This document shows, piece after piece, positions 1 to 14,260 of a stretch of DNA of 32,000 bases. A program made the translations under genes and the position numbers. Every line of letters begins with the position of its first letter. Position 1 is the first letter of the stretch. Source of the stretch: Acaryochloris marina MBIC11017 (GTDB lineage: Bacteria; Cyanobacteriota; Cyanobacteriia; Thermosynechococcales; Thermosynechococcaceae). A model generated the notes under the pieces. That model was not told the DNA's origin. It saw only the letters and a list, made by a program, of their open reading frames with translations, and did no database searches. The stretch covers positions 4,710,001-4,742,000 of the forward strand of contig NC_009925.1 in assembly GCF_000018105.1 (NCBI RefSeq), written 5' to 3'.

Positions 1-588
1 GATAGCCTAACTCTAGCTAATGGTGAATAACCATCTTTCTATAGATGATTTGAAACGTTTTGGCGTCCAAATAACATCATCCTTCAATCCTGAATACAAC
101 AGCTCTGCAAAAATGTTTCCTGTATGTACATTTATGTACATTCCAAAATCAAAGAGGTCTTATGCATTTTTGGTGGAAGAAATTGAGTTCTAAGGTAAGT
201 TATGGCTGACTAGGCGATACATCGGACCGCTAAGCAACCGGTTATTTGAGAAGTTATTTACCCTAACTCCCATCTCAGATCACCAAAAGAGGGCAAGTCC
301 CAATTAGATGCATCCATTGTTAATGGTCTCATCCAGTGAACCTAGTTATCTTAATCTCAAAGCTTGCTGAAGACTCGCATAATATCAGGATTTTTCCTTG
401 ATAATTAGCCGATATCTGTTACGAACACAGCCATGCCTGAACCCTTTACCCTGACAGTCGCTTCTATGATCACAATAAATTCAAGTCACAAACTCAGAAA
501 AGAGATAATGCATCGTGAAAATTGAGGCTAAAGGCCAAATTCCATATCTGATGATTTCTGTTTTATATTCAACATCTGGTGCTAAAAC

Positions 589-1500
589 ATGAATAAGCAA
601 GGTAAATGGTTGAGAGAACCAAAGAATGGCCTTAACGTGGTGTTTATTCATGGGATTCACTCAAGCGATGATTGCTGGAGATCCAAAAACGGGACTTACT
701 GGCCGAATTTACTAAAAGCTGAAGGTGAATTAGATGATATAGGAATCTACTTGTTTTCCTATCAAACTGGATTCAATGCAGGTTCCTATAGTTTGGGGGA
801 CATCGTTGACTCTTTATATGAGCATATAACTAATTTTGATCAGGTCTTGGATAGCGATCGAGTTATCTTTGTGTGCCATAGTATGGGAGGTATTATCGCA
901 AGGCGATTCCTGGTTAGAGAAGAATCGAACTTAATTGATAAAGGACTAAAACGCATTGGTTTGTTTCTGGTGGCATCTCCCTCATTAGGTTCTGATTATG
1001 CCAATATGCTTGCCCTTGTATCAGAATTTTTCGGGTATACACAAGCAAAGACTTTGAAATTTTCCCAGAATAATGTCTGGCTCAATGATTTGGACAATGA
1101 TTTTATTAACCTCAAAGATGCGAATAGATTAAATATTAAGGGGCAAGAACTCATTGAAGCTTTACCCATTAAAATCATTCGTTTCTTTGGCTTCAAAAAA
1201 CAAATTGTGGAACCATTCTCAGGCGCAAGATATTTTGGCAGATCCTATAAAGTAGCTGGTTCAGATCACATCACAATCGCCAAGCCTGAGGATAAATATG
1301 CAGACCAGCATCGCTTACTGATTAATTTCATCAAGGATTTTGAAAAACCCTACAATTTATCTAAAACCCAAGCATCAGAGACACAAGACCTATCAAATCC
1401 CACAAAAAGAGATCAAGAAAATCAAATTAGATTGCAGTTCAATAATGAGATATCTGGTGGGGTAGTAAACCAAGCAGAAACTATCAATATTCAGAATTGA
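589..1500 (+). CDS. alpha/beta-hydrolase fold protein (lipase/esterase-like, SesB/PGAP1 type) with N/Q/G-rich C-terminal tail; candidate effector module of the downstream NB-ARC protein
   Basis: 303-aa ORF. It has VVFIHGIHSS near the N-terminus, the nucleophile elbow CHSMGG (GxSxG) about 70 aa later, then LVASPSLGS. It ends at TGA 1498-1500, which is in frame with ORF 1576..3543. Confidence 0.7.
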   Translation: MNKQGKWLREPKNGLNVVFIHGIHSSDDCWRSKNGTYWPNLLKAEGELDDIGIYLFSYQTGFNAGSYSLGDIVDSLYEHITNFDQVLDSDRVIFVCHSMGGIIARRFLVREESNLIDKGLKRIGLFLVASPSLGSDYANMLALVSEFFGYTQAKTLKFSQNNVWLNDLDNDFINLKDANRLNIKGQELIEALPIKIIRFFGFKKQIVEPFSGARYFGRSYKVAGSDHITIAKPEDKYADQHRLLINFIKDFEKPYNLSKTQASETQDLSNPTKRDQENQIRLQFNNEISGGVVNQAETINIQN

Positions 1501-1575
1501 CTAAAGTCGTCCGACTGGGACCGGACAGAGTTAAATCCCAATATTCATATCCCCAATAATCTTCCCCGTAGTGGT

Positions 1576-3543
1576 GTGATTGCTTTCGAGGGTCGGGAGG
1601 ATCTGCTTACTCAACTCCAAAGCCAGCTCAAGAACAATGAGCTAAGTGGTATCACTGGAGTCAGAGGCATGGGTGGAATCGGGAAAACAGAGCTTGTCCT
1701 CCAGTACGCGATCTCCTGTTTTAACCAACAACTCTATCCTGGGGGTGTTTGTTGGCTTCGGGCGAGAGATCAAGAAATTGCTACTCAAATTATCAGCTTT
1801 GCCAAGGCTAATCTGGGCATCAAACCACCCGATAAACTAGAAACTAAGGAGAAAGTGAAATTCATATGGCAACGATGGCCAGAAGGAGATAGCCTCGTTA
1901 TTGTGGATGATGTCACAGACTATGCTGCTATCGATCCCTATCTACCACCTGCCTCACAGAAATTCAAGATCCTGATTACCACACGCATCAATCTCGGTTC
2001 ATCAGTTACTCAAATAGAGATTGAAAAACTCACTGATCAGGCTGCAATTAAAGTACTAAAAGCCATTGTGGGGAAGGATCGAATAGAGTCACAGCTCACT
2101 TCTGTGAAAACTCTTTGTCAAAAAGTCGGTAATCTACCCCTAGGTTTAGAATTATTGGGACGGTTTCTAGCAAGGAAATTAGATTGGTCTGTTCAAAAGC
2201 TGATTGAAAGACTTGAATCCAAGAAATTAGAAGCGAAAGCCCTCATTGAAACAGAATCAGGAATGACAGCCCGGTTAGGGATTGCCGCTGCGCTGGAATT
2301 GAGTTGGGTAGAGCTAAACGACGCAGAACAGAAACTTGCTTGCTTATTGGGGATGTTTTCTGTCGCTCCCATCTCTTGGCATTTAGTTGAGATGAGTTTA
2401 TCTAAAAAGGATACGGATTGCCTTGAAGAACTCAGAGATGAGGGGTTAATCGACAATAGCTTGCTGAAACGAGTAGGACAAGGCACCTATCAACTCCATC
2501 AAATTATTCAGGAATTCTTTCGAATTAAGTTGAATGAGCGCACTGATAAGGGAGAATCTCTAAAAAAAACTTATTGCAAAGTAATGATTGGTTTTACAAA
2601 GGATATTAGTGACATTCCAACGATTGATGAGATTGATGAGCTGAAGAAAACTATCCCACACCTTGAAGAAATGATTAATCATTGGATTAGTTATCTAGCA
2701 GACGAAGATTTGATCTGGGCATTTGAAGGTATCGGTCGATTTTATGAAGGGCAGGGAGATTTTAGTCTGTCATTATTCTGGAGAAGAAAAGGCGTAAATC
2801 AAACTCAGAAAAAATTAAGTGCTAAGAACCCTGATTATTTACGTAGTCTCAGGCATCTAGGATTGTTTTACTTAAAACTGGGTAATGACAAGGAAGCACA
2901 ACCGCTTTTAGAGAAGGTATTTGAAGAGATAAAAGACTCTGAAGAAGAAGGTGTCTTAGGTATAAGATTACGCAACGATCTAGGAGCACTTTACTTTAGG
3001 CAGGAACGGTTTTCAAAAGCTGAATCATTCTATAATAAGGCACTTGAATTAAGTCAAAAGTCATTATTTAAAGAAAATTCTGATATAGCATCAATCCTCA
3101 ACAACCTTGCAAAAATCCATGAGAAAAAAGGTCTTTCTGAAAAAGCAAAATCTTTATATGATGAAGCTCTAAACCTAGAAGAAATTGGAGATTTTAATTT
3201 CGCACAGATCCTCGATAACTTAGGTAATCACTATAATATGAAAAAACAGTATCGAGAGGCAGAACCTTACTTTGAAAAATCTTTAAAAATAAGAAAGAGT
3301 ACCTTAGGAGAGAAACATCTTAAAGTTGCTGAGAGTCTTAGTAACACTGCTGATAACTATTTTTTTCAAGGACGTTTTCAGGAGGCGGCAAAACTTTTTA
3401 AGCAATCGGCAGCTATTTATGAGGAGTTATTTGATTGCGAATATCACAAAACAGTTGAAGTTAAAAAAAGCTTAGAAATTTGCGATCTAGCGATAAGATT
3501 TTGGTTGATTCGACTAATAATTAAATTGAGATTATGTTTTTAA
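1576..3543 (+). CDS. NB-ARC (STAND) NTPase with C-terminal TPR repeats, bacterial NLR-like protein
   Basis: FEGRE motif, then Walker A GMGGIGKT (1666-1689), Walker B LVIVDDV, ILITTR and the GLPL-type motif GNLPLGLELLG. Several TPR_12-like repeats follow (LNNLAKIHEKKGLSEKAKSLYDEAL, LDNLGNHYNMKKQYREAEPYFEKSL, LSNTADNYFFQGRFQEAAKLFKQS). The called start is GTG with no SD, and the upstream sequence is open in the same frame. Confidence 0.9.
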   Translation: MIAFEGREDLLTQLQSQLKNNELSGITGVRGMGGIGKTELVLQYAISCFNQQLYPGGVCWLRARDQEIATQIISFAKANLGIKPPDKLETKEKVKFIWQRWPEGDSLVIVDDVTDYAAIDPYLPPASQKFKILITTRINLGSSVTQIEIEKLTDQAAIKVLKAIVGKDRIESQLTSVKTLCQKVGNLPLGLELLGRFLARKLDWSVQKLIERLESKKLEAKALIETESGMTARLGIAAALELSWVELNDAEQKLACLLGMFSVAPISWHLVEMSLSKKDTDCLEELRDEGLIDNSLLKRVGQGTYQLHQIIQEFFRIKLNERTDKGESLKKTYCKVMIGFTKDISDIPTIDEIDELKKTIPHLEEMINHWISYLADEDLIWAFEGIGRFYEGQGDFSLSLFWRRKGVNQTQKKLSAKNPDYLRSLRHLGLFYLKLGNDKEAQPLLEKVFEEIKDSEEEGVLGIRLRNDLGALYFRQERFSKAESFYNKALELSQKSLFKENSDIASILNNLAKIHEKKGLSEKAKSLYDEALNLEEIGDFNFAQILDNLGNHYNMKKQYREAEPYFEKSLKIRKSTLGEKHLKVAESLSNTADNYFFQGRFQEAAKLFKQSAAIYEELFDCEYHKTVEVKKSLEICDLAIRFWLIRLIIKLRLCF

Positions 3544-3629
3544 GGTTGTGAAGAATGTCTATTTTTGTAGACTTCAAATTATGAGTAATTATCTAACATG
3601 AATAGCTAGTAAACCTGAAAGTCATTCTG

Positions 3630-4295
3630 GTGGGGGATATTCATGTGGGTAAAAAAAGCATTGAGTGGATAAAAACTAGATTCCCAGATCAGGTTATTTA
3701 TGTGTTGGGTAATCATGAGTACTACGGCAGGGCCTTTCCCAAGCACATTCAGGATCTTAAGCAATTGATCGCAGATACAAATATCCACCTTTTGGAAAAT
3801 GATTGCTTAGTCATCAATGACGTGACATTCCTGGGGTGTACTTTATGGACAAACTTTAAATTGTTTGGTGAACCCAAAATTGCGGGCTACGAGGCGACTC
3901 AGACCATGACGGACTACCGTAAAATTCGTGTGAGCCCGGACTATCGTAAGCTGCGATCCCTTGATACGGCTATCATTCACCAAAAATCCTTGAGCTGGTT
4001 GTCTGAAGAGATCAAGCAGCTCAAGACGATGCGGAGCAAAGTTGTAATTGTGACGCACCATGCCCCCAGTAAACGTTCCATTCCCCATCCCTACCAAGAG
4101 GATATGTTGAGTGCGGCCTACGCTTCACATCTGGACCCGTTTGTTGCAAACTCCCACGCAACAGTATGGGTTCATGGTCATGTCCATGAAGAATATGACT
4201 ATGCCATCGGCAATACGCGGGTGATTTGTAATCCCAGAGGTTACCCAGATGAACCTAATGAACGTTTTATCCCTGATCTTGTGATTGAAATTTGA
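3630..4295 (+). CDS. calcineurin-like metallophosphoesterase
   Basis: Motifs GDIHVG, GNHEYY, VTHHAP and GHVHE occur in canonical order. The true start is uncertain: the frame is open from 3606, and CTG 3615 would give MKVILVGDIHVG. Confidence 0.8.
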   Translation: MGDIHVGKKSIEWIKTRFPDQVIYVLGNHEYYGRAFPKHIQDLKQLIADTNIHLLENDCLVINDVTFLGCTLWTNFKLFGEPKIAGYEATQTMTDYRKIRVSPDYRKLRSLDTAIIHQKSLSWLSEEIKQLKTMRSKVVIVTHHAPSKRSIPHPYQEDMLSAAYASHLDPFVANSHATVWVHGHVHEEYDYAIGNTRVICNPRGYPDEPNERFIPDLVIEI

Positions 4296-4318
4296 CCGCC
4301 ATCAAAGGCGGTTTATAT
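4295..4318 (+). terminator. candidate Rho-independent terminator after the metallophosphoesterase
   Basis: ACCGCC (4295-4300), loop ATCAAA, GGCGGT (4307-4312), then TTATAT. It overlaps the TGA stop. The T-tract is short. Confidence 0.4.
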
Positions 4319-4357
4319 CATCCGCAGAAATTTTGCTCTTTCCGATGAAATGAACCC

Positions 4358-5056
4358 ATGGCTAATTCAGCACTGACGCTTCCCTATTTCGATCTGATTC
4401 TGAAACAACTCGACCAGGGCGACGCTATTTTTGAGCAAGCTTTTGGTCGCCATGTTCATTGGGGCTATTGGGCCAATCCAGATCAGGCTACCTATACGGC
4501 CAAGGATTATGGGGCCGCAGCAGAGCAAATGAGTGTTGAAATTTATTCTGCGGCTCAGGTACAAGACCATCAAACCATTTTGGATGTGGGGTGTGGTGTA
4601 GGGGGCACCGTAGCCAGCTTGAATGAGCGTTTTACGAACGTCAGTTTATTGGGGCTGAATCTGGATGAACGTCAGCTAGCCTATGCCCAACAAACAGTGA
4701 CTGCTCGGCCAGAAAACACCATTGAGTTTGTCCAAGGGGATGCTTGTGCGCTGCCCTTTGCCGATCAATCGGTAGATGCGGTGTTAGCGGTTGAGTGTAT
4801 TTTTCACTTTCCAGATCGCAAGCAGTTTTTGCAGGAAGCGTTGCGGGTGCTTAAACCAGGCGGTTGGTTGGCGATTTCTGATTTTGCACCGTTTGAAATG
4901 GAAGGATGGCCCGCTTTTTTATGGCAGTCAAATCCTGTCTTGCCTAGTTTCTATGGATCGTTTGATGTCACCTACACCCTTCAAAAATATCGGATTTTGT
5001 CTGGGCAGGTTGGCTTTGGGGCAATGCAGTCTAGTATTCCGTCAAAGATTTATTGA
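4358..5056 (+). CDS. class I SAM-dependent methyltransferase (Methyltransf_11-like), 3' end disrupted by IS630-family insertion
   Basis: Motif I ILDVGCGVGG, acidic loop LGLNLDE, post-I GDACALPF and LKPGGWLAISDF. The last ~8 codons (SIPSKIY*) are read from the IS terminal repeat. The original C-terminus continues at 6246..6424. Confidence 0.85.
   Translation: MANSALTLPYFDLILKQLDQGDAIFEQAFGRHVHWGYWANPDQATYTAKDYGAAAEQMSVEIYSAAQVQDHQTILDVGCGVGGTVASLNERFTNVSLLGLNLDERQLAYAQQTVTARPENTIEFVQGDACALPFADQSVDAVLAVECIFHFPDRKQFLQEALRVLKPGGWLAISDFAPFEMEGWPAFLWQSNPVLPSFYGSFDVTYTLQKYRILSGQVGFGAMQSSIPSKIY
5034..5045. repeat. IS630-family terminal inverted repeat (end next to transposase stop)
   Basis: GTATTCCGTCAA matches the reverse complement of 6232-6243 at 10 of 12 positions and is preceded by TA. 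Confidence 0.7.
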
Positions 5057-6174
5057 TGGGTAAAGTCTGTGTAATTTGACCCTGGCATCTTGCGTCGTGA
5101 ACCGCCAGTCAATCCATGTTCCCTTTTGGTTTCGGTGCTCATTCCAAGCCCTCACATGCTTTTGTAAGGTTGGAAAATCAGCAATGCGTTGATCTAAACA
5201 TTGACGAGACAGGATACTTAATTCAATCTCAGCCATATTGAGCCAGCTTCCATGCTTGGGGGTGTAGAAAAATTCGAACCGAGATAAAAGTCTCCTGGCT
5301 TCTTCAGGTTCAAAAGCTTTGTAGAGTGAGGAGGGGGAGTGAATATTGAGATTGTCTTGAACCAGCGTGAGGGTGTGGGCCTCAGGGTAAAACACATCCA
5401 CTAATTCTTTGAGTAGATGAGCATAGTCAATGGCAGTTCGTCGTTGAGTTACTTTCACATATCGCGTGCCTACTATTGGCTCACACAACATAAAGAGATT
5501 GGCTGTGCCCTTACGTTCATACTCATAGTCAACACGTTCGGGTTGACCACGTTGAGCCGCGATGGGTAGAGTGATTTCCTCAACCAATTGCTTGGTGGCT
5601 TCATCCAGACAAATCAAAGGATTCCTCAAGTCATAAGGACGCTCATAAACCGTTAAGAGCTCCTCCATTCGCCAGACAAATTCTGCATTCTGCTGTGGGG
5701 GGATGACCCAACAGGTCTTTCGCCAAGGCTGCAACTCGTTTTTTTTAGAGTTTGTCGGACACTCTCATGACTGAGGTGGTCGATGTAGCCTAATTCCACC
5801 ATCTGGTCTGCGAGTAAGCGTAATGTCCAGCGAGCATGACCAACGGGGGGTTCACTGCAGCGTAAGGCAATCAGATGAGCTTCTTGTTCTCCTTGTATTT
5901 TTCGCTTTCGACCTGCCCCAGAACGTTGATTGATAGCAGCTTCAAGGCCTTCTTCCACAAATCGCATACGCACCCGCTCAATTGTGCGTATGCTGACACC
6001 TATCGCTTCATGAATTTCTCGATCACAGCAACCACCATGAGTTTGGTTAGTATCCGCTTTCAGAAGAATGCGGGCATGATTGATTTGCCGAGCACCTCGT
6101 TTTCCCGTGAACGTGAAATTCTTGAGATACTGTTGCTCTGGCTCACTCAGAGTGACGATGTACCGTTTACCCAT
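5042..6174 (-). CDS. IS630-family transposase, HTH ORF (6174..5653) joined to DDE ORF (5734..5042) by a programmed -1 frameshift
   Basis: ORFA begins MGKRYIVTLSEPEQQYLK and has HTH regions, with AGGAG 6 nt upstream of the ATG. ORFB carries DDE_3-like motifs (CLDEATK, LVQDNLNIH, YTPKHGSWLNMAEIE). A slip on the A8 run gives TLKKNELQPWRKTCWVIPP, the typical IS630 junction. Confidence 0.85.
5739..5746 (-). other. A_AAA_AAA -1 frameshift slippery site (A8 run on minus strand)
   Basis: The minus strand reads ACT CTA AAA AAA ACG in the ORFA frame. The -1 frame continues AAC GAG TTG CAG CCT TGG into the DDE ORF. Confidence 0.65.
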
Positions 6175-6231
6175 GACGTTCTCCTAGAATGCGTCCATTT
6201 CATTCTAGAAAATATACCTGTCAGTCTTTTC

Positions 6232-6243
6232 TTGACTGAACAC
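6232..6243. repeat. IS630-family terminal inverted repeat (end upstream of transposase start)
   Basis: TTGACTGAACAC is the reverse complement of GTGTTCAGTCAA and is followed by TA 6244-6245. Confidence 0.7.
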
Positions 6244-6245
6244 TA

Positions 6246-6424
6246 GGGATGTGACTCAAAATACGCTGCCTACCTATGGATTTTTTCAGCGACTGCCCCT
6301 GGCTATTGAGATTTCACCGGATTTATTACCTGCGATCACACAGACACTACTGCTCGAAGGCACGAGTCGTTTAGGCTTACTTCGCTATATGATTTTGTCG
6401 TGGCAAAAGCCTGACAGCCGCTAA
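6246..6424 (+). pseudogene. displaced 3' remnant of the methyltransferase gene 4358..5033
   Basis: Removing 5034-6245 (IS plus one TA copy) joins ...GFGAMQS to RDVTQNTLPTYGFFQRLPLAIEISPDLLPAITQTLLLEGTSRLGLLRYMILSWQKPDSR*. That adds 59 open codons ending at TAA 6422-6424. Confidence 0.7.
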
Positions 6425-6425
6425 G

Positions 6426-7346
6426 TTATCCCTTTCTCCGAGGATCGATGGAGATAAGCTTAGAATTGATTTCGACATTCTGGGGTCGCTGAATATTCCA
6501 AGCCAAACCCAACATTTGTAAACTGCGAATTAACCACCAGCCTGGATCTACTTGATGAGAACCATGCCCTAACCGAGCTGAGTTAGGAAAGGCATGGTGA
6601 TTATTGTGCCAACATTCCCCCATAGTGAGCAATCCCAAGCCTGGGACGTTATAGCCTTGCACCCCTGCGCCATCAATATGCCAATCACGATGGCCCCATC
6701 GATGGGCAAAATAGCCCACAAGCCAGTGCCCAGTGACACAAACACTCACGCGGACGCAGATTCCCCAGGCCACCCAAGACCAACCTCCAATGATGTAGAA
6801 CACCATTCCCCAAGGCACCTGCTGTAAAAATCGAGTTTTCTCTAACCATTTGTAGAACCTGTTAGTTGCGACCCGCCTTTCATAGTGGATGGCCGGGGGG
6901 TATCGCAAATACAGATCGCAATGCAACAGCCAAAACCAGTCTTTGCAGAGGTTCTGGCGGCTGGCAAAATAATCATGACAGTGAGGGTGCCGTTGCGCCC
7001 AGTCACGCAGCTCATGCATTCGGATAATCGAAAATGGCCCCGCAAACCCCATCAAGGTGCCGCAGTAGACCATGGCTTGTTCTAACCATTGAGGACAGTC
7101 AAAACTGTTATGAATTAAGCGACGATGCATACCCACTGAATGCCCCGCACAGAGGGTGATCACGCTGGTGACGGCAAACAGTAGAAACGCATCGCCTGAA
7201 AAGGTCAGTGGTCCACCGATCAGCGCTCCTAGATACATGCTGCTGATCCAAGCTGATTTTTGAGGAGACCAGCGGACCTGGCCCAAGCAAGGATCAACTT
7301 TGAGATCGCAAGCTTGAATTCTGGCGATATCATGGGCAGTGTTCAT
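6426..7346 (-). CDS. membrane fatty-acid desaturase family protein (acyl-CoA/acyl-lipid delta-9 type, divergent)
   Basis: His boxes GHSVGMHRRLIH and WHNNHHAFPNSARLG, plus AHRWGHRDW, with hydrophobic segments between them. The second His box is atypical. Confidence 0.7.
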   Translation of the reverse strand: MNTAHDIARIQACDLKVDPCLGQVRWSPQKSAWISSMYLGALIGGPLTFSGDAFLLFAVTSVITLCAGHSVGMHRRLIHNSFDCPQWLEQAMVYCGTLMGFAGPFSIIRMHELRDWAQRHPHCHDYFASRQNLCKDWFWLLHCDLYLRYPPAIHYERRVATNRFYKWLEKTRFLQQVPWGMVFYIIGGWSWVAWGICVRVSVCVTGHWLVGYFAHRWGHRDWHIDGAGVQGYNVPGLGLLTMGECWHNNHHAFPNSARLGHGSHQVDPGWWLIRSLQMLGLAWNIQRPQNVEINSKLISIDPRRKG

Positions 7347-7494
7347 CGGGCGGCACCAAATGCTTATCCCCTTTATCTAAACCGGGCTAAGGCTGAGATT
7401 ACGGTTGGGCGAGAGGGGACTTAGGGGTGACTTGAGGTTGAGTTCGAGCCAATGGATGGACGATACAATTTGAGCAAAGCCTCTGCACGAAACA

Positions 7495-8589
7495 ATGGCA
7501 CGATCCCTGCGAGTCACCATCGACAACCTGCCGAAAGTGAAACTGGCTTTGCAACGAAACGGGTATCCCAGTCAAAAGGCCTTCGCCGCCGACATTGGCC
7601 CGTCCCTCTCCACCGTCAAGAATTTTCTGGGCGGTAAACCCATTGACTACGAAAACTTCCGCGAAATCTGCGATCAATTGGGGTTGGATTGGCAAGCGAT
7701 TGCCTACACAGAGTCCCCATCGGCACTGGATGCTCCACCTGCTGCCCTGAAAGCGTCACCGTTTATCACCGGGACACCCATTCACCATCCCCGTCATTTC
7801 TTTGGTCGAGAAAGACAGCTCAAACGCTGCTTTACCCTGCTCAAACACCATCCATTGCAGAATATGGCGATCATGGGTCCACGGCGGTCAGGTAAAACCT
7901 CGTTTCTCCGCTACCTAGAGACCATCCCCACGACTGCACCGGATCAACTGCGACCCCACCAAAAGCAGAATTGGTTGCCTCGTCCAGATCTCTACAACTG
8001 GATTTTCGTTGATTTTCAAAATGCCCGCATGTCCAGCCAGGATAAACTACTAGGCTATTTACTATCGGCCCTCAGTTTGCCAGTTCCCGATGCCCTGGAT
8101 TTAGATGGCTTTATGGATCGGGTCAGTGGTGCCGTCCATCAGCCCACCGTCATCCTGCTAGATGAGATTGGGGTGGGTTTGCAGCGATGTCCTGAGCTAG
8201 ACGATGCCTTTTGGGAAAGTCTTCGGTCTTTAGCCACAAATCAAACGGCGGGCAATTTGGCCTTTGTTATCTCTGCTCCAGAGACACCCATGGAACTGGC
8301 CCAACATAGCGGATTTAGCTCGCCCTTTTTCAATATCTTTGGCTATTCCACGACATTAGCCCCTTGGCAGCAGCAAGATACCTTAGATCTCATTGCAAGT
8401 TCACCGATTCCCTTTACGGACGCGGATCAAGCTTGGATTTGCCAGCAGAGTGGGGGCTGGCCGTTTTTGGCTCAAATTTTATGTTCTGAACGTTTGTTTG
8501 CCTTAGAAAATGACGAAACCGGGACAGCATGGCAAGTCGAAGGGTTGAAACAGATTGAACCCTATCGATATTTGTTGGATCAGAAATAA
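7495..8589 (+). CDS. HTH-domain protein fused to a STAND/AAA-like ATPase (AAA_35 / Arch_ATPase-like)
   Basis: N-terminal XRE-like HTH (QKAFAADIGPSLSTVKNFLGGKPIDYENFREICDQLGLDWQ), then FFGRERQL, Walker A GPRRSGKTSFL (GKT at 7891-7899), Walker B VILLDEIG and GGWPFLAQILC. Confidence 0.7.
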   Translation: MARSLRVTIDNLPKVKLALQRNGYPSQKAFAADIGPSLSTVKNFLGGKPIDYENFREICDQLGLDWQAIAYTESPSALDAPPAALKASPFITGTPIHHPRHFFGRERQLKRCFTLLKHHPLQNMAIMGPRRSGKTSFLRYLETIPTTAPDQLRPHQKQNWLPRPDLYNWIFVDFQNARMSSQDKLLGYLLSALSLPVPDALDLDGFMDRVSGAVHQPTVILLDEIGVGLQRCPELDDAFWESLRSLATNQTAGNLAFVISAPETPMELAQHSGFSSPFFNIFGYSTTLAPWQQQDTLDLIASSPIPFTDADQAWICQQSGGWPFLAQILCSERLFALENDETGTAWQVEGLKQIEPYRYLLDQK

Positions 8590-8591
8590 CG

Positions 8592-11405
8592 GTGTCGCGC
8601 TTACAGGGCTATACCCATGCTCCGCCCCTGCATCCCAACTTAGTTTTGGGGAGTTTGCATCTACTCTGTTGGTTCTTCTTCCATCCTTCGGCCTGGAAAC
8701 ATCACCTGCGCTCCATCAATCTGCGCCCTGATTTTTGTCTAGCGGAGATCAATTGGAGACAACCCCAGCCCTCAGCGCTCAAACGGTTGTTGATACAAGG
8801 GTATGTAATTCTGCCTCTGCTGGTTGGGGGTGTTGTTGGTCTGGGGCTATGGGGATTAAGTGTTTCTGGTGCTGATATGGCCTTTGGCATGGCAGTGGGC
8901 ATGGCTGCAAGTGTCGCTGGCAGCTTAGCTGGGGGAATGGTGGTGGGCGTCGCCGTTAGTTTGGCCAGCAGTTTTATCAGCGGGATTGTGGTGGGACTCC
9001 TATTTGGGGTCATGCTGGGAACAACCACCCTCGCCGAGCTGGGTTGGGGGTTGGGGTCAGCTGCAGCGAGTGTGGGGGTGTTGCAGAGCTTTATTCACCC
9101 GGTGTCCTTGGTGGGGATTAATGCCTCGAATGTGGCGGCTAGTGTAGCTGTGAGTTTGTCGCCTCGAAAAAGCGATCTCATTCCCGTATCGCAAAAACTA
9201 GGTGGTGCAGTGTTGGGGATTGTCCTGAGCCTCAGCGGTCTATGGGCGGTGGCCCAAGCAACAACGCAGCTTCTCCGGCCGGGTGCAATTCCACTTAACA
9301 CCGTCTCTTTTGCCCTTTTAGGGTTGGGAATGGGGTGCTTTTACGGTATTGCCCTGGGATGGCGAACGCAGCGATGGCGGATTGCAATCCCAATGTGCCT
9401 TGGTTTAGGAGCCTTCATTGGCACAGCAGTGGGACTGGGCTTAAACGTTAACAGTGCTGTGGTTCGGGGTATGGTGATTGGCGGTGGTAATGCCGCACTC
9501 TTAACCACCTTATTTGCTCTGCCCTATGTGCTGACGGAATCCATCGCTGGTCCTTGGATTGCCGCAATTGTGGGCACCATTGGCAGCGGCGGCGTGTATA
9601 TCATTTTTGCCAGTCTGATTGGTGGGCTATCCCTGCAACTGACGTTACCGATAAGCCTGGTTTGCATCGCTTTGGGATTAACGATGGCCCAGTGGCGACC
9701 TATTTTGCTATATCCCGTACAAATCTTGTGGAATCAGTGTCTGTATCGCCTCGATACCCAAAGAACGGAGCATCAATCTAGCGTCCTACGATGGCATACG
9801 GTGTTCTGGGATGAGTTTCAATATCTGCCGTTAGTCGGGCTAGATCAGCATTTAGTCCTGGCTCTGGAGAGTTGGGCACAAGAGGGACAAGCGGCCATCG
9901 ACTTTATTGATCGCACACCGCAACGATGGGCGGCTCACCAGGCTCAAGTGGAGCTGAATATTCGTAAGTTAGAGCAATGCAGAACAATCGCAGATATCTG
10001 CCAGGTTCAGAAGACGATTCTGGGTGAAGCAACGGAGGAGAGTCATCTATTCCGTATCTGTCAGCAGATCAGTTTGGATGTGGATGCCGCCCTACAGCAA
10101 AGGAGTTCCTACAATCAGCGGTTGGCTCTGAGCGCGGTCTTGGAACGATTGGATACTCAACGGCAGGTGATACGAGGGGATGCGGTCTATGTCCCGCGGC
10201 CAGCAAATAACGACTATCGCATCGCCGGATTCCGCACTATTTTTCAGGCCTGGCATCAGATCATTGCCCAACAGATTGAAACCCTCCAAACCGAGACGGA
10301 CCAGAACCAAGAAATTGACTCGCCCTACATTATCGGTATCCCTTTAACTGGGCAACAGGCGCTGTTTGTTGGTCGGACGGATATTAGCCAGCGAATTGAA
10401 CAGCTCGTGCGCGATGATCGCAGTCCGGCTTTGTTGCTGTACGGGCAGCGACGCATGGGCAAAACGTCATTGCTCAATAATTTAGGGCGTTTGCTCCCCC
10501 AGACGATTATTCCCTTATTTGTGGATTTGCAAGGGTCAGCATCACGGGCTCAGGATCACACGGGCTTTTTATATAACCTAGCCAAAGCCATGTCAGCCGC
10601 TGCAAAACAGTATCGAGGCGTTCAATTTCCCCCTTTGGAACGAAGCGATTTGGCGGTTGATCCTTTTACCCAGTTTGAAGAATGGCTAGATGAAGTAGGG
10701 GTGCTGTTGGGCAATCGGACGGCATTGCTAGCTCTAGATGAGTTTGAAGTTTTAGTGGGTGCCTTTGAGCAGGGAAGATTTGACGAATCTGCCATTTTGG
10801 GAATGCTACGTCATCTCATTCAGCATCGCCCTCAGTTTAAGGTATTGCTCTCGGGCACTCATACTCTGGAAGCATTCAAAAGTTGGGCTAGCTATTTGAT
10901 TAATCTGCAAGTGGTTCCAGTCAGCTATTTGACGGAACCAGAAGCGCTGCAGCTGATCACAAATCCCATCCCTGAATTTGAGTTGCAATACGAGCCTGAT
11001 GCGGTACAGCGGGTGATAGCACTAACCCACTGCCATCCTTTTTTGATCCAACTGCTTTGTGCTGAAATTATTGCCCTGAAAAATGAGCAGGGCATCACGA
11101 TCCGCCGATGGGCAACCTTGGCAGATGTGGAAGCAGCGGTTCCCCAAGCTTTGACCAGTGCCAGTTTCTTCTTTACCGATATTGAGCAAAATCAAGTCAG
11201 TGTAGACGAATTAGCAATTCTGAAATATATGGCAGCTCGGGGAGAAGGGAATGCTATTACCGCTAGCGACTTAAACCAATATCTAAATAAACCAGTAGAT
11301 AGCCTAATGCGTCACTTGAGACAGCAAGACCTCATTCAATCTGTAGATGGAGGGTATTGCTTTCAGGTGGAGTTGATTCGGCGGTGGTTTGCAAAGGTCT
11401 CTTAG
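8592..11405 (+). CDS. multi-pass membrane protein fused to a STAND/AAA-like ATPase paralogous to ORF 7495..8589
   Basis: GTG start 2 nt after the upstream TAA. Residues ~60-390 form many Gly/Ala/Val-rich hydrophobic segments. These are followed by a helical middle region, FVGRTDIS, Walker A GQRRMGKTSLL (10455-10469), Walker B LALDEFE, HCHPFLIQLLC and a C-terminal wHTH-like tail. Confidence 0.7.
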   Translation: MSRLQGYTHAPPLHPNLVLGSLHLLCWFFFHPSAWKHHLRSINLRPDFCLAEINWRQPQPSALKRLLIQGYVILPLLVGGVVGLGLWGLSVSGADMAFGMAVGMAASVAGSLAGGMVVGVAVSLASSFISGIVVGLLFGVMLGTTTLAELGWGLGSAAASVGVLQSFIHPVSLVGINASNVAASVAVSLSPRKSDLIPVSQKLGGAVLGIVLSLSGLWAVAQATTQLLRPGAIPLNTVSFALLGLGMGCFYGIALGWRTQRWRIAIPMCLGLGAFIGTAVGLGLNVNSAVVRGMVIGGGNAALLTTLFALPYVLTESIAGPWIAAIVGTIGSGGVYIIFASLIGGLSLQLTLPISLVCIALGLTMAQWRPILLYPVQILWNQCLYRLDTQRTEHQSSVLRWHTVFWDEFQYLPLVGLDQHLVLALESWAQEGQAAIDFIDRTPQRWAAHQAQVELNIRKLEQCRTIADICQVQKTILGEATEESHLFRICQQISLDVDAALQQRSSYNQRLALSAVLERLDTQRQVIRGDAVYVPRPANNDYRIAGFRTIFQAWHQIIAQQIETLQTETDQNQEIDSPYIIGIPLTGQQALFVGRTDISQRIEQLVRDDRSPALLLYGQRRMGKTSLLNNLGRLLPQTIIPLFVDLQGSASRAQDHTGFLYNLAKAMSAAAKQYRGVQFPPLERSDLAVDPFTQFEEWLDEVGVLLGNRTALLALDEFEVLVGAFEQGRFDESAILGMLRHLIQHRPQFKVLLSGTHTLEAFKSWASYLINLQVVPVSYLTEPEALQLITNPIPEFELQYEPDAVQRVIALTHCHPFLIQLLCAEIIALKNEQGITIRRWATLADVEAAVPQALTSASFFFTDIEQNQVSVDELAILKYMAARGEGNAITASDLNQYLNKPVDSLMRHLRQQDLIQSVDGGYCFQVELIRRWFAKVS

Positions 11406-11426
11406 ACCTAGCTAGTTCGATCTGAG

Positions 11427-13265
11427 CTAAGTCGAGGGATTAGAAGGAGGGAAATACCCTCTGGGGGTAATCATCCAATCCTGGTGAAACCGAGTGGTGG
11501 CATTGCCGATAATCACGGTGCTGAGCATATCTACGGGCAGCGTATCCAGCTCTGATAGCGTTCCCAGATGAGTGGTTTGGTCTGGACGATAGACCGATCT
11601 CACCACGGCTACGGGGGTTTGTGGATCTCGATGTTGCAAACAGATTTGCTGGGCTTTGAGTAGATGTTCGATGCGTTTTTGCGATCGCGGATTGTACAGA
11701 GCCATGACAAAATCAGCAGCAGCGGCAGCCTCTAGGCGCTTTTCAATCACGGACCAAGGGGTGAGCAAATCACTGAGGCTAATGGCGCAAAAGTCATGCA
11801 TAAGGGGCGTACCCACTTGAGAAGCAGCTGCTTGCAGAGCAGAAATTCCGGGAAAAATTTGGACGACTGGGGTCTGCCCATCCCAACCATTCTGCTGTAG
11901 TGCTTCCATCACTAAACCGGCCATGCCATAAATACCAGCATCACCCGAAGAAATCACGGCAACAGTCAGGCCCCACTGAGCTAAATCGATGGCCCGTTGG
12001 GCGCGTTGGCGTTCTTGGGTAATGGGGGACGGTTCAATGATTTGACCAGGACGAAACTGCGATCGCACCAAGTCCACATAGAGGGTATAGCCAATCACCA
12101 CATCTGCTTGGGTAATGGCCGTTTTGGATGCAGGAGTCATTTGGTCCAGGTCACCAGGTCCCGTTCCTACTAGAAGCAGTTGCCCCCTACGCCCGGTATA
12201 TTCTTGTTCAGCTTGAGCAATGGCAATGGTGACCGCTCCAGGTTGTGCCGGGTCTTTGAAGATTTGCTTGGTTGCCAGGAGGGTGAATTGCTGGGCAGCT
12301 TTAAGGGCAGCGGCTTCAGCCACGCTGGGGGTGCCCACTTCAGCCTTAACGACATCGGAAGGGGTGGGGACTGCTACGGCTTTTAAGTCTTCAGGGGAGT
12401 AGCATTTTAGAGGCCAGTTAGCCTGTTGGCAGAGATCCACTAACCCGACTTCATCGGCTTTCAGGTCTAGGGTGGCAACCCCAGCAATGGCTTCCCAAGC
12501 CAGTTGATGTTGTTCACAGACTTGTCGCAGGGCCTGTTCCATTAGCTGTCGGGAGGTGCCTCGCTCGCAGCCCATGCCAACCCAGAGAACGCGGGGATGC
12601 CATTGGACGCTGGATTGTTTTGGGGATAGGACTTTGGGGCTGATCCAAATTTGGGGCGCTTCAGTATCGCTAACGAATTGATAGGTGTGAGATGGGGGTA
12701 AATGAGCTTGCCATAGTTCGGAACCAGCGGCTTGGTGGACAGTGACAGTTTCACCTCGGGCAATGGCTCCAGCGATAGCGTTCCAATCACCAGCCCCTCG
12801 TTGCCAGCCGAAGGGGATGCCGAGGGTATCAATGCTAGGCAAGTTAGCGGCATTACTGGCCCCGGTGAGGATAGGGGTGGCCCCGATTTGTTGGGCGAGG
12901 AGTTGGGTAAGTTGATCCGCTCTCCCCAGGTGACCACTGCAGAGGCTGAGCACGAATTGGCCGGGTTCATCAAGGACGACAACGGCAGGATCTTGGGATT
13001 TGTCGGTTAGGAGGGGGGCGATTAGGCGGACGACGGCTCCGGTTGCAAGGCAACAGATCAGACCCTGATGGTCGTTCCACAAGGTTTGGAGATGGTCTTT
13101 GAGGGAGCCGCTATAGGCTTGGGTGTGAGGTAGGTGGGAGAGGGAGGCAGGGACCCAAAGGGTGGCTCCGGTTTGTTGACAGAGGGGATGGAGGGTGTGG
13201 ACGGCGTTGGGGGTGGTGGCGATGGCGGCTAAAGGCTGGAAGGTTTGAAACAAACGTTGACTCAA
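11427..13265 (-). CDS. cobJ: bifunctional CbiG (cobalt-precorrin-5A hydrolase)-like / precorrin-3B C17-methyltransferase (CobJ/CbiH) fusion
   Basis: The N-terminal two thirds are CbiG-like (VVVLDEPGQFVLSLCSGHLG, LWVGMGCERG). The C-terminal part is a tetrapyrrole methylase (LLLVGTGPGDLDQMT, VISSGDAGIYGMAG). The start is TTG. Confidence 0.85.
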   Translation of the reverse strand: MSQRLFQTFQPLAAIATTPNAVHTLHPLCQQTGATLWVPASLSHLPHTQAYSGSLKDHLQTLWNDHQGLICCLATGAVVRLIAPLLTDKSQDPAVVVLDEPGQFVLSLCSGHLGRADQLTQLLAQQIGATPILTGASNAANLPSIDTLGIPFGWQRGAGDWNAIAGAIARGETVTVHQAAGSELWQAHLPPSHTYQFVSDTEAPQIWISPKVLSPKQSSVQWHPRVLWVGMGCERGTSRQLMEQALRQVCEQHQLAWEAIAGVATLDLKADEVGLVDLCQQANWPLKCYSPEDLKAVAVPTPSDVVKAEVGTPSVAEAAALKAAQQFTLLATKQIFKDPAQPGAVTIAIAQAEQEYTGRRGQLLLVGTGPGDLDQMTPASKTAITQADVVIGYTLYVDLVRSQFRPGQIIEPSPITQERQRAQRAIDLAQWGLTVAVISSGDAGIYGMAGLVMEALQQNGWDGQTPVVQIFPGISALQAAASQVGTPLMHDFCAISLSDLLTPWSVIEKRLEAAAAADFVMALYNPRSQKRIEHLLKAQQICLQHRDPQTPVAVVRSVYRPDQTTHLGTLSELDTLPVDMLSTVIIGNATTRFHQDWMITPRGYFPPSNPST

Positions 13266-13552
13266 GTGGAATGCCTGTAGGTGGAAGTATAGGAGAAGTC
13301 TACTATGGCCAATAGAGAAAACTGTTTACTTAACGCAGTTTCAGAATGGCCGAATTGTTTTGGGATATTGGAATACATCCAAGAGGAATGCTCATTGTCA
13401 AATCTTGGGGGCTGAATATGCGGACGATAGCGTTCTGCTAATTTATCGAATTGCACCACAGCTCTGGAAACGATTTTCAACCTCTCTAAACTGGGTACTT
13501 TGGGTGGAAGGGCACGCTTGCTACTTGTCCAGTCCTAAATCGAGCCATCCCA

Positions 13553-14260
13553 ATGCTCATAGCCTTTATAAATTTCACCTTCCACTTACTCCTGGGGCTG
13601 TTTGTGATACTGATGGGTGGAGGAGCTTGCTATATCGGATTCCGAGGCTTAAAACTCACCATCTTTGCCCCCAGCTACCATCCTCGACGTAAAGGCCGAA
13701 TGATGGCTAAAGGCAAAGCCTGCGCAACCCATCCCAATGAAGTGCAAACGACACCCATCAGCCAAACCGCTTGTATCGCCTATGAATTTTTTATACTAGA
13801 GCCACGCAATAATACAAAGGAGGGTGACTCATTCGCCTTCCTACATCGTCAATCTCGGGGACGGTGGAATCTGAGTGTGCAGACATCCAGAGGGCAAGTA
13901 CAGGTCAAACCAACCGAATTAGAGCTAGATCATATTCATTTTGAAGATCGCCAAGATTTATGGAGTGAATTTACAGAATCCCGATCCGTATCTTTACTAG
14001 CCGAACAAAAAATCACATTAAAGCACAAACTAACAGGTACCCGTCGAACCCTAATTTTGAGAGAAAAGGTCATTCGCAACGGGGATGTTATTCGAGTCTT
14101 GGGTCGCCAAAAGCACAGCAATCAGTTGCCCTTACTAGAAGATGCCATTGTCACAGACAAACCCATAAGCAGAGTGATTTTAGAATCTTCTCTCGCTCTT
14201 CTGGCAGGCTTATTTGTGCTTGGGGTTGGCATTAGCCTCATTAACCATGCATTTCGTTAA
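13553..14260 (+). CDS. hypothetical membrane protein with N- and C-terminal TM helices (GIDE-domain-like pattern)
   Basis: 235-aa ORF with hydrophobic N-terminus FHLLLGLFVILMGGGACYIGF and C-terminus LALLAGLFVLGVGISLI. The segment GKACATHPNEVQTTPISQTACIAYEF resembles the GIDE family core. The family call is weak. Confidence 0.4.
   Translation: MLIAFINFTFHLLLGLFVILMGGGACYIGFRGLKLTIFAPSYHPRRKGRMMAKGKACATHPNEVQTTPISQTACIAYEFFILEPRNNTKEGDSFAFLHRQSRGRWNLSVQTSRGQVQVKPTELELDHIHFEDRQDLWSEFTESRSVSLLAEQKITLKHKLTGTRRTLILREKVIRNGDVIRVLGRQKHSNQLPLLEDAIVTDKPISRVILESSLALLAGLFVLGVGISLINHAFR

Follow-up and report, generated by a model that had tools for sequence, protein, structure and literature searches.

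The chromosome of Acaryochloris marina MBIC11017 harbors two adjacent genes, AM1_4686 (ORF1, the A partner) and AM1_4687 (ORF2, the B partner), that encode paralogous nucleoside triphosphatases (NTPases) of the STAND type and belong to a conserved two-gene unit. They lie in a 32,000-nucleotide stretch (contig NC_009925.1, positions 4,710,001 to 4,742,000), referred to here as the window, and all coordinates are those of the window. Each partner joins its NTPase to a different N-terminal part: a predicted XRE-like helix-turn-helix (HTH) in ORF1 and a glycine-rich transmembrane (TM) domain in ORF2. The chances appear evenly balanced that the pair forms a self-contained, co-inherited two-protein STAND-NTPase signaling module. 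In this best-supported reading B would be the membrane switch or sensor and A would carry the output; that such pairs represent a new class of transmembrane signaling is put forward only tentatively below.

7495 to 8589, forward strand: ORF1 (AM1_4686; ABW29658.1, WP_012164957.1), A partner, ATG start, 364 aa
8590 to 8591, forward strand: 2-nt spacer (cg) between the ORF1 stop codon TAA (8587-8589) and the ORF2 start codon GTG (8592)
8592 to 11405, forward strand: ORF2 (AM1_4687; WP_041660089.1), B partner, GTG start, 937 aa

Coordinates, lengths, start codons and the 2-nt gap agree with an initial annotation of this DNA when re-read from the sequence. The ORF2 product is 937 aa long in RefSeq (WP_041660089.1) vs. 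919 aa in the original GenBank entry (ABW29659.1). A consensus scan found no promoter- or terminator-like sites above shuffled expectation between or inside the two genes. Given the 2-nt spacer and the lack of any such signal above chance, co-transcription and translational coupling are likely.

Homology of the two NTPase modules

The features used to assess STAND membership, after the definition of Leipe et al. (2004), were a Walker A motif of the form GxxxxGK[ST], a Walker B motif hhhhD[DE], the hhGR[ED] and GxP motifs, a winged-helix domain (WHD) and C-terminal repeats. The motifs, whose positions were checked in both proteins, are located as follows:

7798 to 7821, forward strand: FFGRERQL, the STAND "hhGRE" motif of ORF1 (motif position check, profile alignment)
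7876 to 7902, forward strand: GPRRSGKTS, Walker A of ORF1 (R131, K134, T135 and S136 invariant)
8152 to 8172, forward strand: ILLDEIG, Walker B of ORF1 (D223 and E224 invariant)
8452 to 8484, forward strand: GGWPFLAQILC, GxP motif in the helical domain of ORF1 (profile alignment, model)
10365 to 10388, forward strand: FVGRTDIS motif of ORF2
10443 to 10469, forward strand: GQRRMGKTS, Walker A of ORF2
10728 to 10748, forward strand: LALDEFE, Walker B of ORF2
11028 to 11060, forward strand: HCHPFLIQLLC, GxP motif of ORF2 (family consensus GHP)
11355 to 11390, forward strand: YCFQVELIRRWF, in the winged helix that runs to the C-terminus of ORF2

When an alignment of 25 ORF1 members is compared profile to profile (hhalign) with one of 23 ORF2 members, the probability is 98.7% (E = 3e-16, 289 columns, 26% identity), and ORF1 residues ~88-341 pair with ORF2 residues ~576-832. 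Pairwise BLASTP of ORF1 against ORF2 recovers the Walker A neighborhood only (30% identity over 97 aa, E = 6e-5). All six motif pairs from which paralogy had been proposed in the initial annotation fall in aligned columns of the profile alignment, including hhGR[ED] (FFGRE in ORF1, FVGRT in ORF2) and GxP (GGWP and HCHP), and the residues of both Walker motifs are invariant in the two family alignments. Foldseek searches of the PDB with both proteins return plant NLRs, ORC/Cdc6, SSO1545 (2fna), PABY2304 (2qen), RuvB and MalT, the MalT-MalK structure 8bob being among the matches of each. The profile alignment, the Foldseek matches and the phylogenetic tree described below show that the modules are paralogues within one STAND-type family.

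Matches to named domain families are generic or marginal. ORF2 scores 29.7 bits against Pfam nSTAND1 (PF20703, gathering threshold 27.1) over residues 588-918, a marginal hit, and also matches AAA_22; ORF1 reaches 19.7 bits against nSTAND1, under the 27.1 cut-off, and stays below every Pfam gathering score. Both have weak ATPase_2 matches, and NCBIfam and PADLOC likewise return only generic or marginal AAA/STAND matches for the two proteins. Neither protein matches Pfam nSTAND2 (PF20702, threshold 24 bits) at E <= 0.01. Because A proteins of remoter pairs score 82-92 bits against nSTAND2, ORF1 is best described as a divergent relative and not as a detectable member. In ORF2 the nucleotide-binding domain (NBD) and helical domain (HD) are followed by a WHD, as judged from the model and from Foldseek matches to the NBD-HD-WHD of NLR and ORC proteins. 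ORF1 has none, since its C-terminus lies only 34 residues past the GxP motif. The C-terminal sensor repeats TPR, WD40 and LRR were found in neither protein by Pfam or in the AlphaFold models.

Architecture of the two partners

ORF1 consists of an XRE-like HTH, a linker and a STAND-type NTPase (NBD and HD, without winged helix).

7495 to 7710, forward strand: XRE-like HTH, ORF1 residues 1-72 (AlphaFold model and domains of homologues)

In the AlphaFold model of ORF1 (mean pLDDT 67), residues 1-72 (pLDDT ~86) form a four-to-five-helix bundle with helices at 9-21, 27-33, 38-45 and 52-62. Close homologues have precomputed HTH_3/HTH_31 matches (PF01381/PF12844) or XRE names, and remoter A-type proteins match HTH_3. 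The HTH predicted in the initial annotation is backed by these homologues and by the helix model, with Pfam itself silent on ORF1 (residues 1-102, no match). With ORF1 residues 1-95 as tblastn query only cyanobacterial loci match, and the XRE-like domain of the A family thus appears to be confined to its cyanobacterial members.

From its N-terminus, ORF2 runs through a conserved segment, some ten Gly-rich TM helices and a helical juxtamembrane domain to a complete NBD-HD-WHD:

8592 to 8771, forward strand: conserved N-terminal segment, ORF2 residues 1-60 (invariant HPSAW motif at 8682-8696)
8772 to 9701, forward strand: Gly/Ala/Leu-rich membrane domain, residues 61-370 (conserved motif AGPW..GSGG at 9546-9593)
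9702 to 10316, forward strand: helical domain, predicted cytoplasmic, residues 371-575 (conserved motifs WRPILLYP, FWDExQ and QRWAAQ.AQ.EL)
10317 to 11402, forward strand: STAND NTPase module, residues 576-937 (Pfam nSTAND1, AAA_22, Foldseek)

Residues 71-372 contain 15.9% Gly and 15.9% Leu, have only 13 charged residues and include approximately ten hydrophobic segments; the TM region has 15 GxxxG and 30 small-xxx-small-xxx-small motifs, and its positive-charge distribution fits an N-in/C-in topology. In the AlphaFold model (mean pLDDT 80), the stretch from residue 61 to 389 holds ten long helices and residues 398-572 form a helical domain; helices plus a β-hairpin at 891-936 make up the WHD. 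Composition and model bear out the glycine-rich TM segments and the ~200-aa helical linker of the initial description. Residues 1-575 have no Pfam match. The ORF2-family profile finds nothing significant among PDB sequences (the RFC P-loop and aquaporin/FNT appear at E 0.15-0.8), and Foldseek with the full model gives matches confined to the NTPase part, with none for the TM and helical domains. Among 1.84 billion representative proteins, residues 1-575 have 423 matches, nearly all 900-960 aa long, so the TM-plus-helical module is essentially always fused to an NTPase of the ORF2 type. The TM region measures 300-350 aa in 66 of the 74 members with landmark motifs, and a large variation in TM length, suggested by two Nostocales/Oscillatoriales proteins of 813-827 aa, was dropped on this account. 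Among close Acaryochloris relatives the TM region and the ATPase are equally conserved.

A ten-TM domain of constant length tied to an NTPase could also belong to a membrane-process machine, in which a transporter-like or membrane-remodeling B is powered by an AAA+-type ring of A and B (in the envelope, septal junction or filament) and DNA binding by A serves autoregulation only. Aquaporin and formate/nitrite channels resemble the TM region weakly and without significance (E 0.4-0.8), which points in this direction, as does the presence of the pair mostly in filamentous lineages. However, no transporter family matches the TM region significantly, and STAND NTPases are switches and not motors (Leipe et al., 2004, as cited in PMC8195603). 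Such a machine is quite improbable, also in view of the A variants and remoter B proteins described below.

Conservation and phylogeny of the pair

A scan of GTDB (one genome per species) with the ORF2 alignment gave 448 relatives, of which the best 80 were used for locus inspection. These 80 loci belong to Chloroflexota (Anaerolineae, Ardenticatenaceae, Promineifilaceae, Leptofilum), cyanobacteria (Acaryochloris, Nostoc, Alkalinema), Beggiatoaceae (Parabeggiatoa, Thioploca, Thiomargarita, Marithrix, Halobeggiatoa) and one Polyangia genome. The pair also occurs in many filamentous cyanobacteria (Nostoc, Anabaena, Calothrix, Fischerella, Microcoleus), including a strain of N. punctiforme (L070), and is co-inherited in hundreds of hosts, most of them filamentous. 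The B family comprises at least 423 clusters at 50% identity, and the A family more than 1,400 clusters at 90% identity.

About 75 of the best 80 loci had enough upstream DNA to be judged. In 64 of them an A gene (48-61% identity to ORF1) precedes B within ~3 kb and in the same orientation, and in another 2 it is divergent. Conversely, ORF1 homologues in Anabaena PCC 7108, Coleofasciculus and ~40 assessable metagenome contigs have an ORF2-family gene next downstream, with three exceptions. Over all fetched loci, A is upstream of B on one strand in 90 of the 92 that hold both modules, and the two genes form a conserved unit. Spacing is tight across pairs (often 2-20 nt or overlapping), and ORF1 is ~60% identical between Acaryochloris and Nostocales. 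The distance matrices of A and B correlate with r = 0.956, a value reached by 0 of 999 Mantel permutations. In a neighbor-joining tree built from the modules of 91 pairs, A and B form reciprocally monophyletic groups, and the duplication is therefore ancient.

Weak pairwise BLASTP similarity and the existence of some B genes without an adjacent A would speak for two independent genes, adjacent by chance or through a recent local duplication and without functional coupling. Order and strand are nevertheless retained across four phyla, the reciprocal monophyly dates the duplication as ancient, and the spacing is tight; independence of the genes is extremely improbable. This explanation and the membrane-process machine rank below both the signaling mechanism and the abortive-infection function discussed later.

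Single loci depart from the common arrangement. In Nostoc spp. the A-B spacer is ~280-340 nt, not 2 nt. In Anabaena sp. PCC 7108 (L081) a 95-aa GIY-YIG ORF at 7405-7692 of that locus separates A from B and may be an insertion of the homing-endonuclease type. One locus (L047) has A/B pairs at 1394-5880 and 10844-13867, the second ~5 kb downstream of the first. Another (L132) has a solo ORF1-like gene with two HTH repeats, directly followed by 11 tandem copies of a 28-nt unit (97% matches, 7050-7356). A cyanobacterial-type pair beside ChlL/ChlN-type genes (Fer4_NifH, DUF5331, Oxidored_nitro) occurs in GCA_050262755.1 (L083), a metagenome-assembled genome (MAG) labeled Actinomycetota, and this contig is probably a mis-binned cyanobacterial one. 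Loci without A in the fetched flanking DNA are found in Thioploca, Thiomargarita, Marithrix and Halobeggiatoa (L045, L049, L052, L058, L062, L072, L073), a clade in which A was either lost or moved; the Parabeggiatoa loci L024 and L026 have A.

Variable N-termini of A and a remoter clade

The NTPase of A is constant, and its N-terminal domain changes by lineage:

Cyanobacteria: XRE-like HTH
Ardenticatenaceae-type Chloroflexota: BTAD/SARP
L010: Ser/Thr protein kinase
L030: Ser/Thr protein kinase, plus a C-terminal GerE HTH
L002: TCAD9 kinase-like domain
Other Anaerolineae and Parabeggiatoa: another HTH-like segment

By their domain types these N-termini are signaling outputs rather than sensors or toxins. 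The swapping of kinase and SARP domains on A is hard to square with a role of A in autoregulation alone, as a membrane-process machine would have it. The MAG DAOUMU01 (Anaerolineae W92_265) carries paralogous A/B pairs (L006, L010, L055) whose A N-termini differ, being HTH-like or a Ser/Thr kinase.

A remoter A/B clade (L136-L163; for example L151 at 5986-9475 and L160 at 5983-9994) shares 27-32% identity, and its genes overlap or lie 10-20 nt apart. Its A proteins match Pfam nSTAND2 at 82-92 bits, with or without HTH_3. Its B proteins have the reverse layout: the NTPase comes first and is followed by one TM helix and, at the C-terminus, an extracytoplasmic domain, which may be WD40, Reg_prop, Laminin_G_3 with GH43_C2 (ConA-like lectin), 3-keto-disaccharide hydrolase, GH25 lysozyme or RskA_C. 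This layout looks like that of a transmembrane receptor with a cytoplasmic regulator; a single TM helix joined to an extracytoplasmic binding domain argues for a receptor and against a transporter.

Proposed mechanism

The best-supported reading of the pair is a two-protein STAND signaling module with B as the likely membrane switch or sensor and A as the likely carrier of the output. More tentatively, we propose a "two-STAND system", in which a membrane STAND receptor (B) and a WHD-less output STAND (A) would form an NTP-gated hetero-oligomer that converts an envelope or membrane cue into transcription or protein phosphorylation, possibly a new class of transmembrane signaling. In the module, B would be anchored in the membrane by approximately ten TM helices, with its N-terminal segment, the 200-aa helical domain and the NBD-HD-WHD switch in the cytoplasm. 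Sensing and switching would fall to B: its TM and juxtamembrane part would take up the cue, which would lead to nucleotide exchange and oligomerization. A would be a truncated paralogous STAND (NBD and HD, without winged helix and without sensor) bearing the output domain, which in cyanobacteria is predicted to be an XRE-type HTH and in Chloroflexota a SARP/BTAD activator or Ser/Thr kinase. It may co-assemble with B through the homologous NTPase modules, and its DNA binding or kinase activity could be controlled by holding A at the membrane or else by releasing or activating it. A-B hetero-oligomerization is a reasonable inference. The analogy is MalT, a STAND transcription factor restrained by the membrane-associated MalK. 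The pair would then be an analogue of two-component systems made from NLR-type switches and enriched in multicellular bacteria, and the remoter pairs with lectin or propeller domains would be its receptor-type relatives.

In favor of the signaling module speak the paralogy with intact Walker motifs, the consistent pairing of the genes, the lineage-dependent outputs on A, the receptor layout of the remoter pairs, the context and evolution of the pair, which are unlike those of defense-island genes, and the fusion of the TM-plus-helical module almost exclusively to this NTPase. Several points weigh against it. No inverted repeats that might serve as operator were found upstream of ORF1. The A gene is absent near 9 assessable B loci, 7 of them in the Thioploca/Thiomargarita/Marithrix/Halobeggiatoa clade, so B can occur without an adjacent A. 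Part of the A-B correlation (r = 0.956) stems from shared species phylogeny, and we infer physical contact between the partners solely from paralogy, adjacency and co-inheritance. The TM region is rich in GxxxG, lacks a recognizable ligand-binding fold and would also suit a channel or pore. Moreover, HTH domains are also found on regulators of defense operons, and the A variant of L002 has TCAD9, a domain named from conflict systems. The multicellular and filamentous host range matches the range attributed to conflict systems by Kaur et al. (PMC7159879, PMC8195603).

Genomic context, selection and a possible conflict role

The initial annotation had suggested NTP-gated membrane permeabilization in abortive infection. 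In such a function an invader trigger would cause an A/B hetero-oligomer to open a Gly-zipper-rich TM pore or channel of B, with depolarization and death of the cell or filament segment, the variable domain of A being a regulator or co-effector. STAND NTPases form the core of many immune systems, and NLR resistosomes are among the top Foldseek matches. The Gly-rich TM domain with its 15 GxxxG and 30 small-xxx-small-xxx-small motifs, the TCAD9 domain on one A variant and the several paralogous pairs in MAG DAOUMU01 also speak for it. So does the host range, which equals that reported for NTP-dependent conflict systems (PMC7159879), and a counter-invader role has been predicted for another STAND plus STAND operon (Kaur et al., 2021).

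However, neither protein has an evident invader-sensing module, TPR, WD40 and LRR being absent from both, and the variable domains are transcription-factor or kinase outputs without nucleases, TIR or proteases. A constitutive ten-helix integral domain is also unlike the insertable amphipathic bundles of ZAR1/HeLo. In PADLOC-DB v2, ORF1 has no match and ORF2 only one to PDC-S27 (E = 8.6e-4, 40 residues around the P-loop), so the pair matches no named defense system there, as the initial annotation had assumed. Searches by tblastn with ORF2 returned nothing from 50,697 phage records and, from 72,556 plasmids, a single remote ATPase-only match and no pair; neither mobility nor a defense-island context is apparent. 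The sole plasmid match (NZ_MH220285.1, Acinetobacter ursingii, 199641-200525; 26.5% identity to the NTPase module) lies under a gene annotated as N-6 DNA methylase and may be a STAND NTPase fused or adjacent to a methylase.

Rates of substitution point the same way. Between the window and a 90%-identical Acaryochloris MAG, dN/dS (the ratio of non-synonymous to synonymous substitution rates) is 0.07 for ORF1 and 0.16 for ORF2, and within ORF2 0.18 for the TM, 0.30 for the helical and 0.12 for the ATPase part. The pair is under purifying selection and has no hypervariable part; like the ~60% identity of ORF1 between Acaryochloris and Nostocales, this speaks against a conflict function.

The neighbors of the pair are housekeeping genes that differ between lineages: a desaturase and CbiG/CobJ in Acaryochloris; an aldehyde dehydrogenase, a TPP (thiamine pyrophosphate) enzyme, an aldolase, an aminotransferase and RNase T2, in conserved synteny, in Nostoc; and elsewhere NadA, AmiC, Dxr and ChlL/ChlN, among others. 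Synteny is stable within Nostoc and within Ardenticatenaceae-type Chloroflexota. These metabolic surroundings come close to the fixed housekeeping context that the initial annotation had named as contrary to its reading, except that universal conservation is lacking. In genomes of Ardenticatenaceae, Promineifilaceae and Leptofilum, the pair with SARP/BTAD-type A is always divergent from a five-gene block encoding TadE/TadG-like pseudopilins and a BNR-like protein (L003, L004, L016, L023, L031, L033-L040, L051, L054, L060, L061, L065, L074, L077, L078). This block could be a regulated target of the pair or reflect lineage synteny only; its vicinity to the pair would also suit a membrane-process machine.

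A further point for a conflict role would be the insertion sequence (IS) and the NB-ARC/TPR gene found in the window a few kb upstream of the pair, neighbors that the initial annotation had pointed out. Both are present, but a fatty-acid desaturase gene separates them from the pair, and because these neighbors are unconserved even in the nearest Acaryochloris relative (L001), the link is incidental. The HIP1-free stretch noted around the pair is real, all seven HIP1 sites (GCGATCGC) lying beyond 11680, but it carries little weight: chance alone predicts only ~4 sites there, and in GC content (0.50-0.53) the pair does not stand out from the window. Recent horizontal acquisition, considered on the grounds of HIP1 absence and IS proximity, was rejected: GC is genome-typical and the pair is orthologous across Acaryochloris. 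With signaling outputs on A, a housekeeping context, no pair in phages or plasmids and purifying selection, membrane permeabilization in abortive infection is poorly supported and must be considered unlikely. The structural part of the initial annotation was thus right, and its functional guess is not the best supported.

The remainder of the window contains the following features:

1 to 4300: low-GC block (0.36-0.41 vs. ~0.49 elsewhere) with an alpha/beta hydrolase, an NB-ARC plus TPR protein and a metallophosphoesterase
1576 to 3543: NB-ARC/TPR STAND gene (best NCBIfam similarity FxSxx_TPR/AfsR-like)
5042 to 6174, reverse strand: IS630-type transposase in two overlapping ORFs (HTH_32/HTH_29 at 5653-6174, DDE_3 at 5042-5734)
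11427 to 32000: CbiG/CobJ fusion, CobO adenosyltransferase, solute-binding protein, ribosomal-protein cluster (L3, L2 and others), SecY, adenylate kinase and NlpC/P60 peptidase

The low-GC block probably represents an island of horizontal origin without relation to the pair, and the split transposase could reflect a programmed frameshift or a decayed copy. The core housekeeping part (11427-32000) holds all seven HIP1 sites.

Comparison with known systems

The nearest published description is a two-gene STAND plus STAND "nSTAND2" operon, predicted to form a hetero-multimeric ring (Kaur, Iyer, Burroughs and Aravind, 2021, eLife 10:e70394, Fig. 6C). Like the A/B pair, it consists of two adjacent genes with MNS-like STAND cores and variable domains on a constant NTPase. 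In contrast, one of its STANDs has eroded NTP-binding motifs, whereas both Walker motifs are intact and invariant in the two partners described here. Its variable modules are HEPN RNase or GT4 domains, neither of which was found by Pfam on ORF1, ORF2 or the A variants; the pair instead has HTH, SARP or kinase domains on A and ten TM helices on B. The published operon is mobile and its listed hosts are mainly proteobacteria, whereas the pair is chromosomal, vertically stable and present in cyanobacteria, Chloroflexota and Beggiatoaceae. With respect to nSTAND2 itself, ORF1 falls below the Pfam family, which only its 27-30% identical relatives match (82-92 bits). The two systems share their logic but are different.

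Other relatives are more distant in organization. The nSTAND1 proteins described in the literature begin with EAD, TIR or peptidase domains and end with lectin domains or repeats, unlike ORF2 with its ten-TM N-terminus. Within the MNS clade (SSO1545/Arch_ATPase), SSO1545 and PABY2304 are among the top Foldseek matches of both proteins. The "Npun2340/2341 family" of this clade, named for two consecutively numbered Nostoc punctiforme genes, may be the A/B family; the text available to us that cites Leipe et al. (2004) attaches neither a function nor a TM architecture to it. In the searchable literature no mention of AM1_4686, AM1_4687 or their accessions was found, and searches for a two-gene STAND arrangement, nSTAND1, nSTAND2 or Npun2340 led only to papers from the Aravind group on a different pair. 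The A/B pair is therefore conserved and, in the literature searched, uncharacterized; it is a new architectural variant within STAND NTPases.

In bacteria, switches of the STAND/NLR type are known in single-chain form, both among transcription factors (MalT, AfsR) and among immune sensors (Avs, bNACHT). In MalT and the SARP-type AfsR, a DNA-binding domain is fused to STAND, and nucleotide state and oligomerization control transcription; MalT is in addition restrained by a membrane-transporter subunit. A resembles such regulators (MalT, AfsR or GutR type) in combining a DNA-binding domain with a STAND module, and Chloroflexota A proteins (BTAD plus NTPase) are like the N-terminal two-thirds of AfsR. 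However, MalT and AfsR each consist of one polypeptide that includes a WHD and C-terminal sensor repeats; A lacks both and is paired instead with a membrane STAND.

Should the proposed signaling mechanism hold, NLR-type NTPases would be used here as a split, membrane-coupled signaling device with interchangeable transcription and kinase outputs. It could define a new type of membrane-to-gene signaling, represented by a large family in genetically tractable cyanobacteria. Were the pair to prove a cell-death system, filamentous bacteria would possess in it a conserved suicide module that is passed on vertically. Plant sensor/helper NLR pairs, and likewise NAIP-NLRC4, are paralogous STANDs, often linked, that split sensing and output and co-assemble. 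These are eukaryotic immune receptors with LRR sensors and cell-death outputs, and their sequence kinship with the pair extends to the STAND fold only. As a two-STAND signaling device, the A/B pair would nevertheless be a bacterial counterpart of the paired and helper NLRs of eukaryotes.

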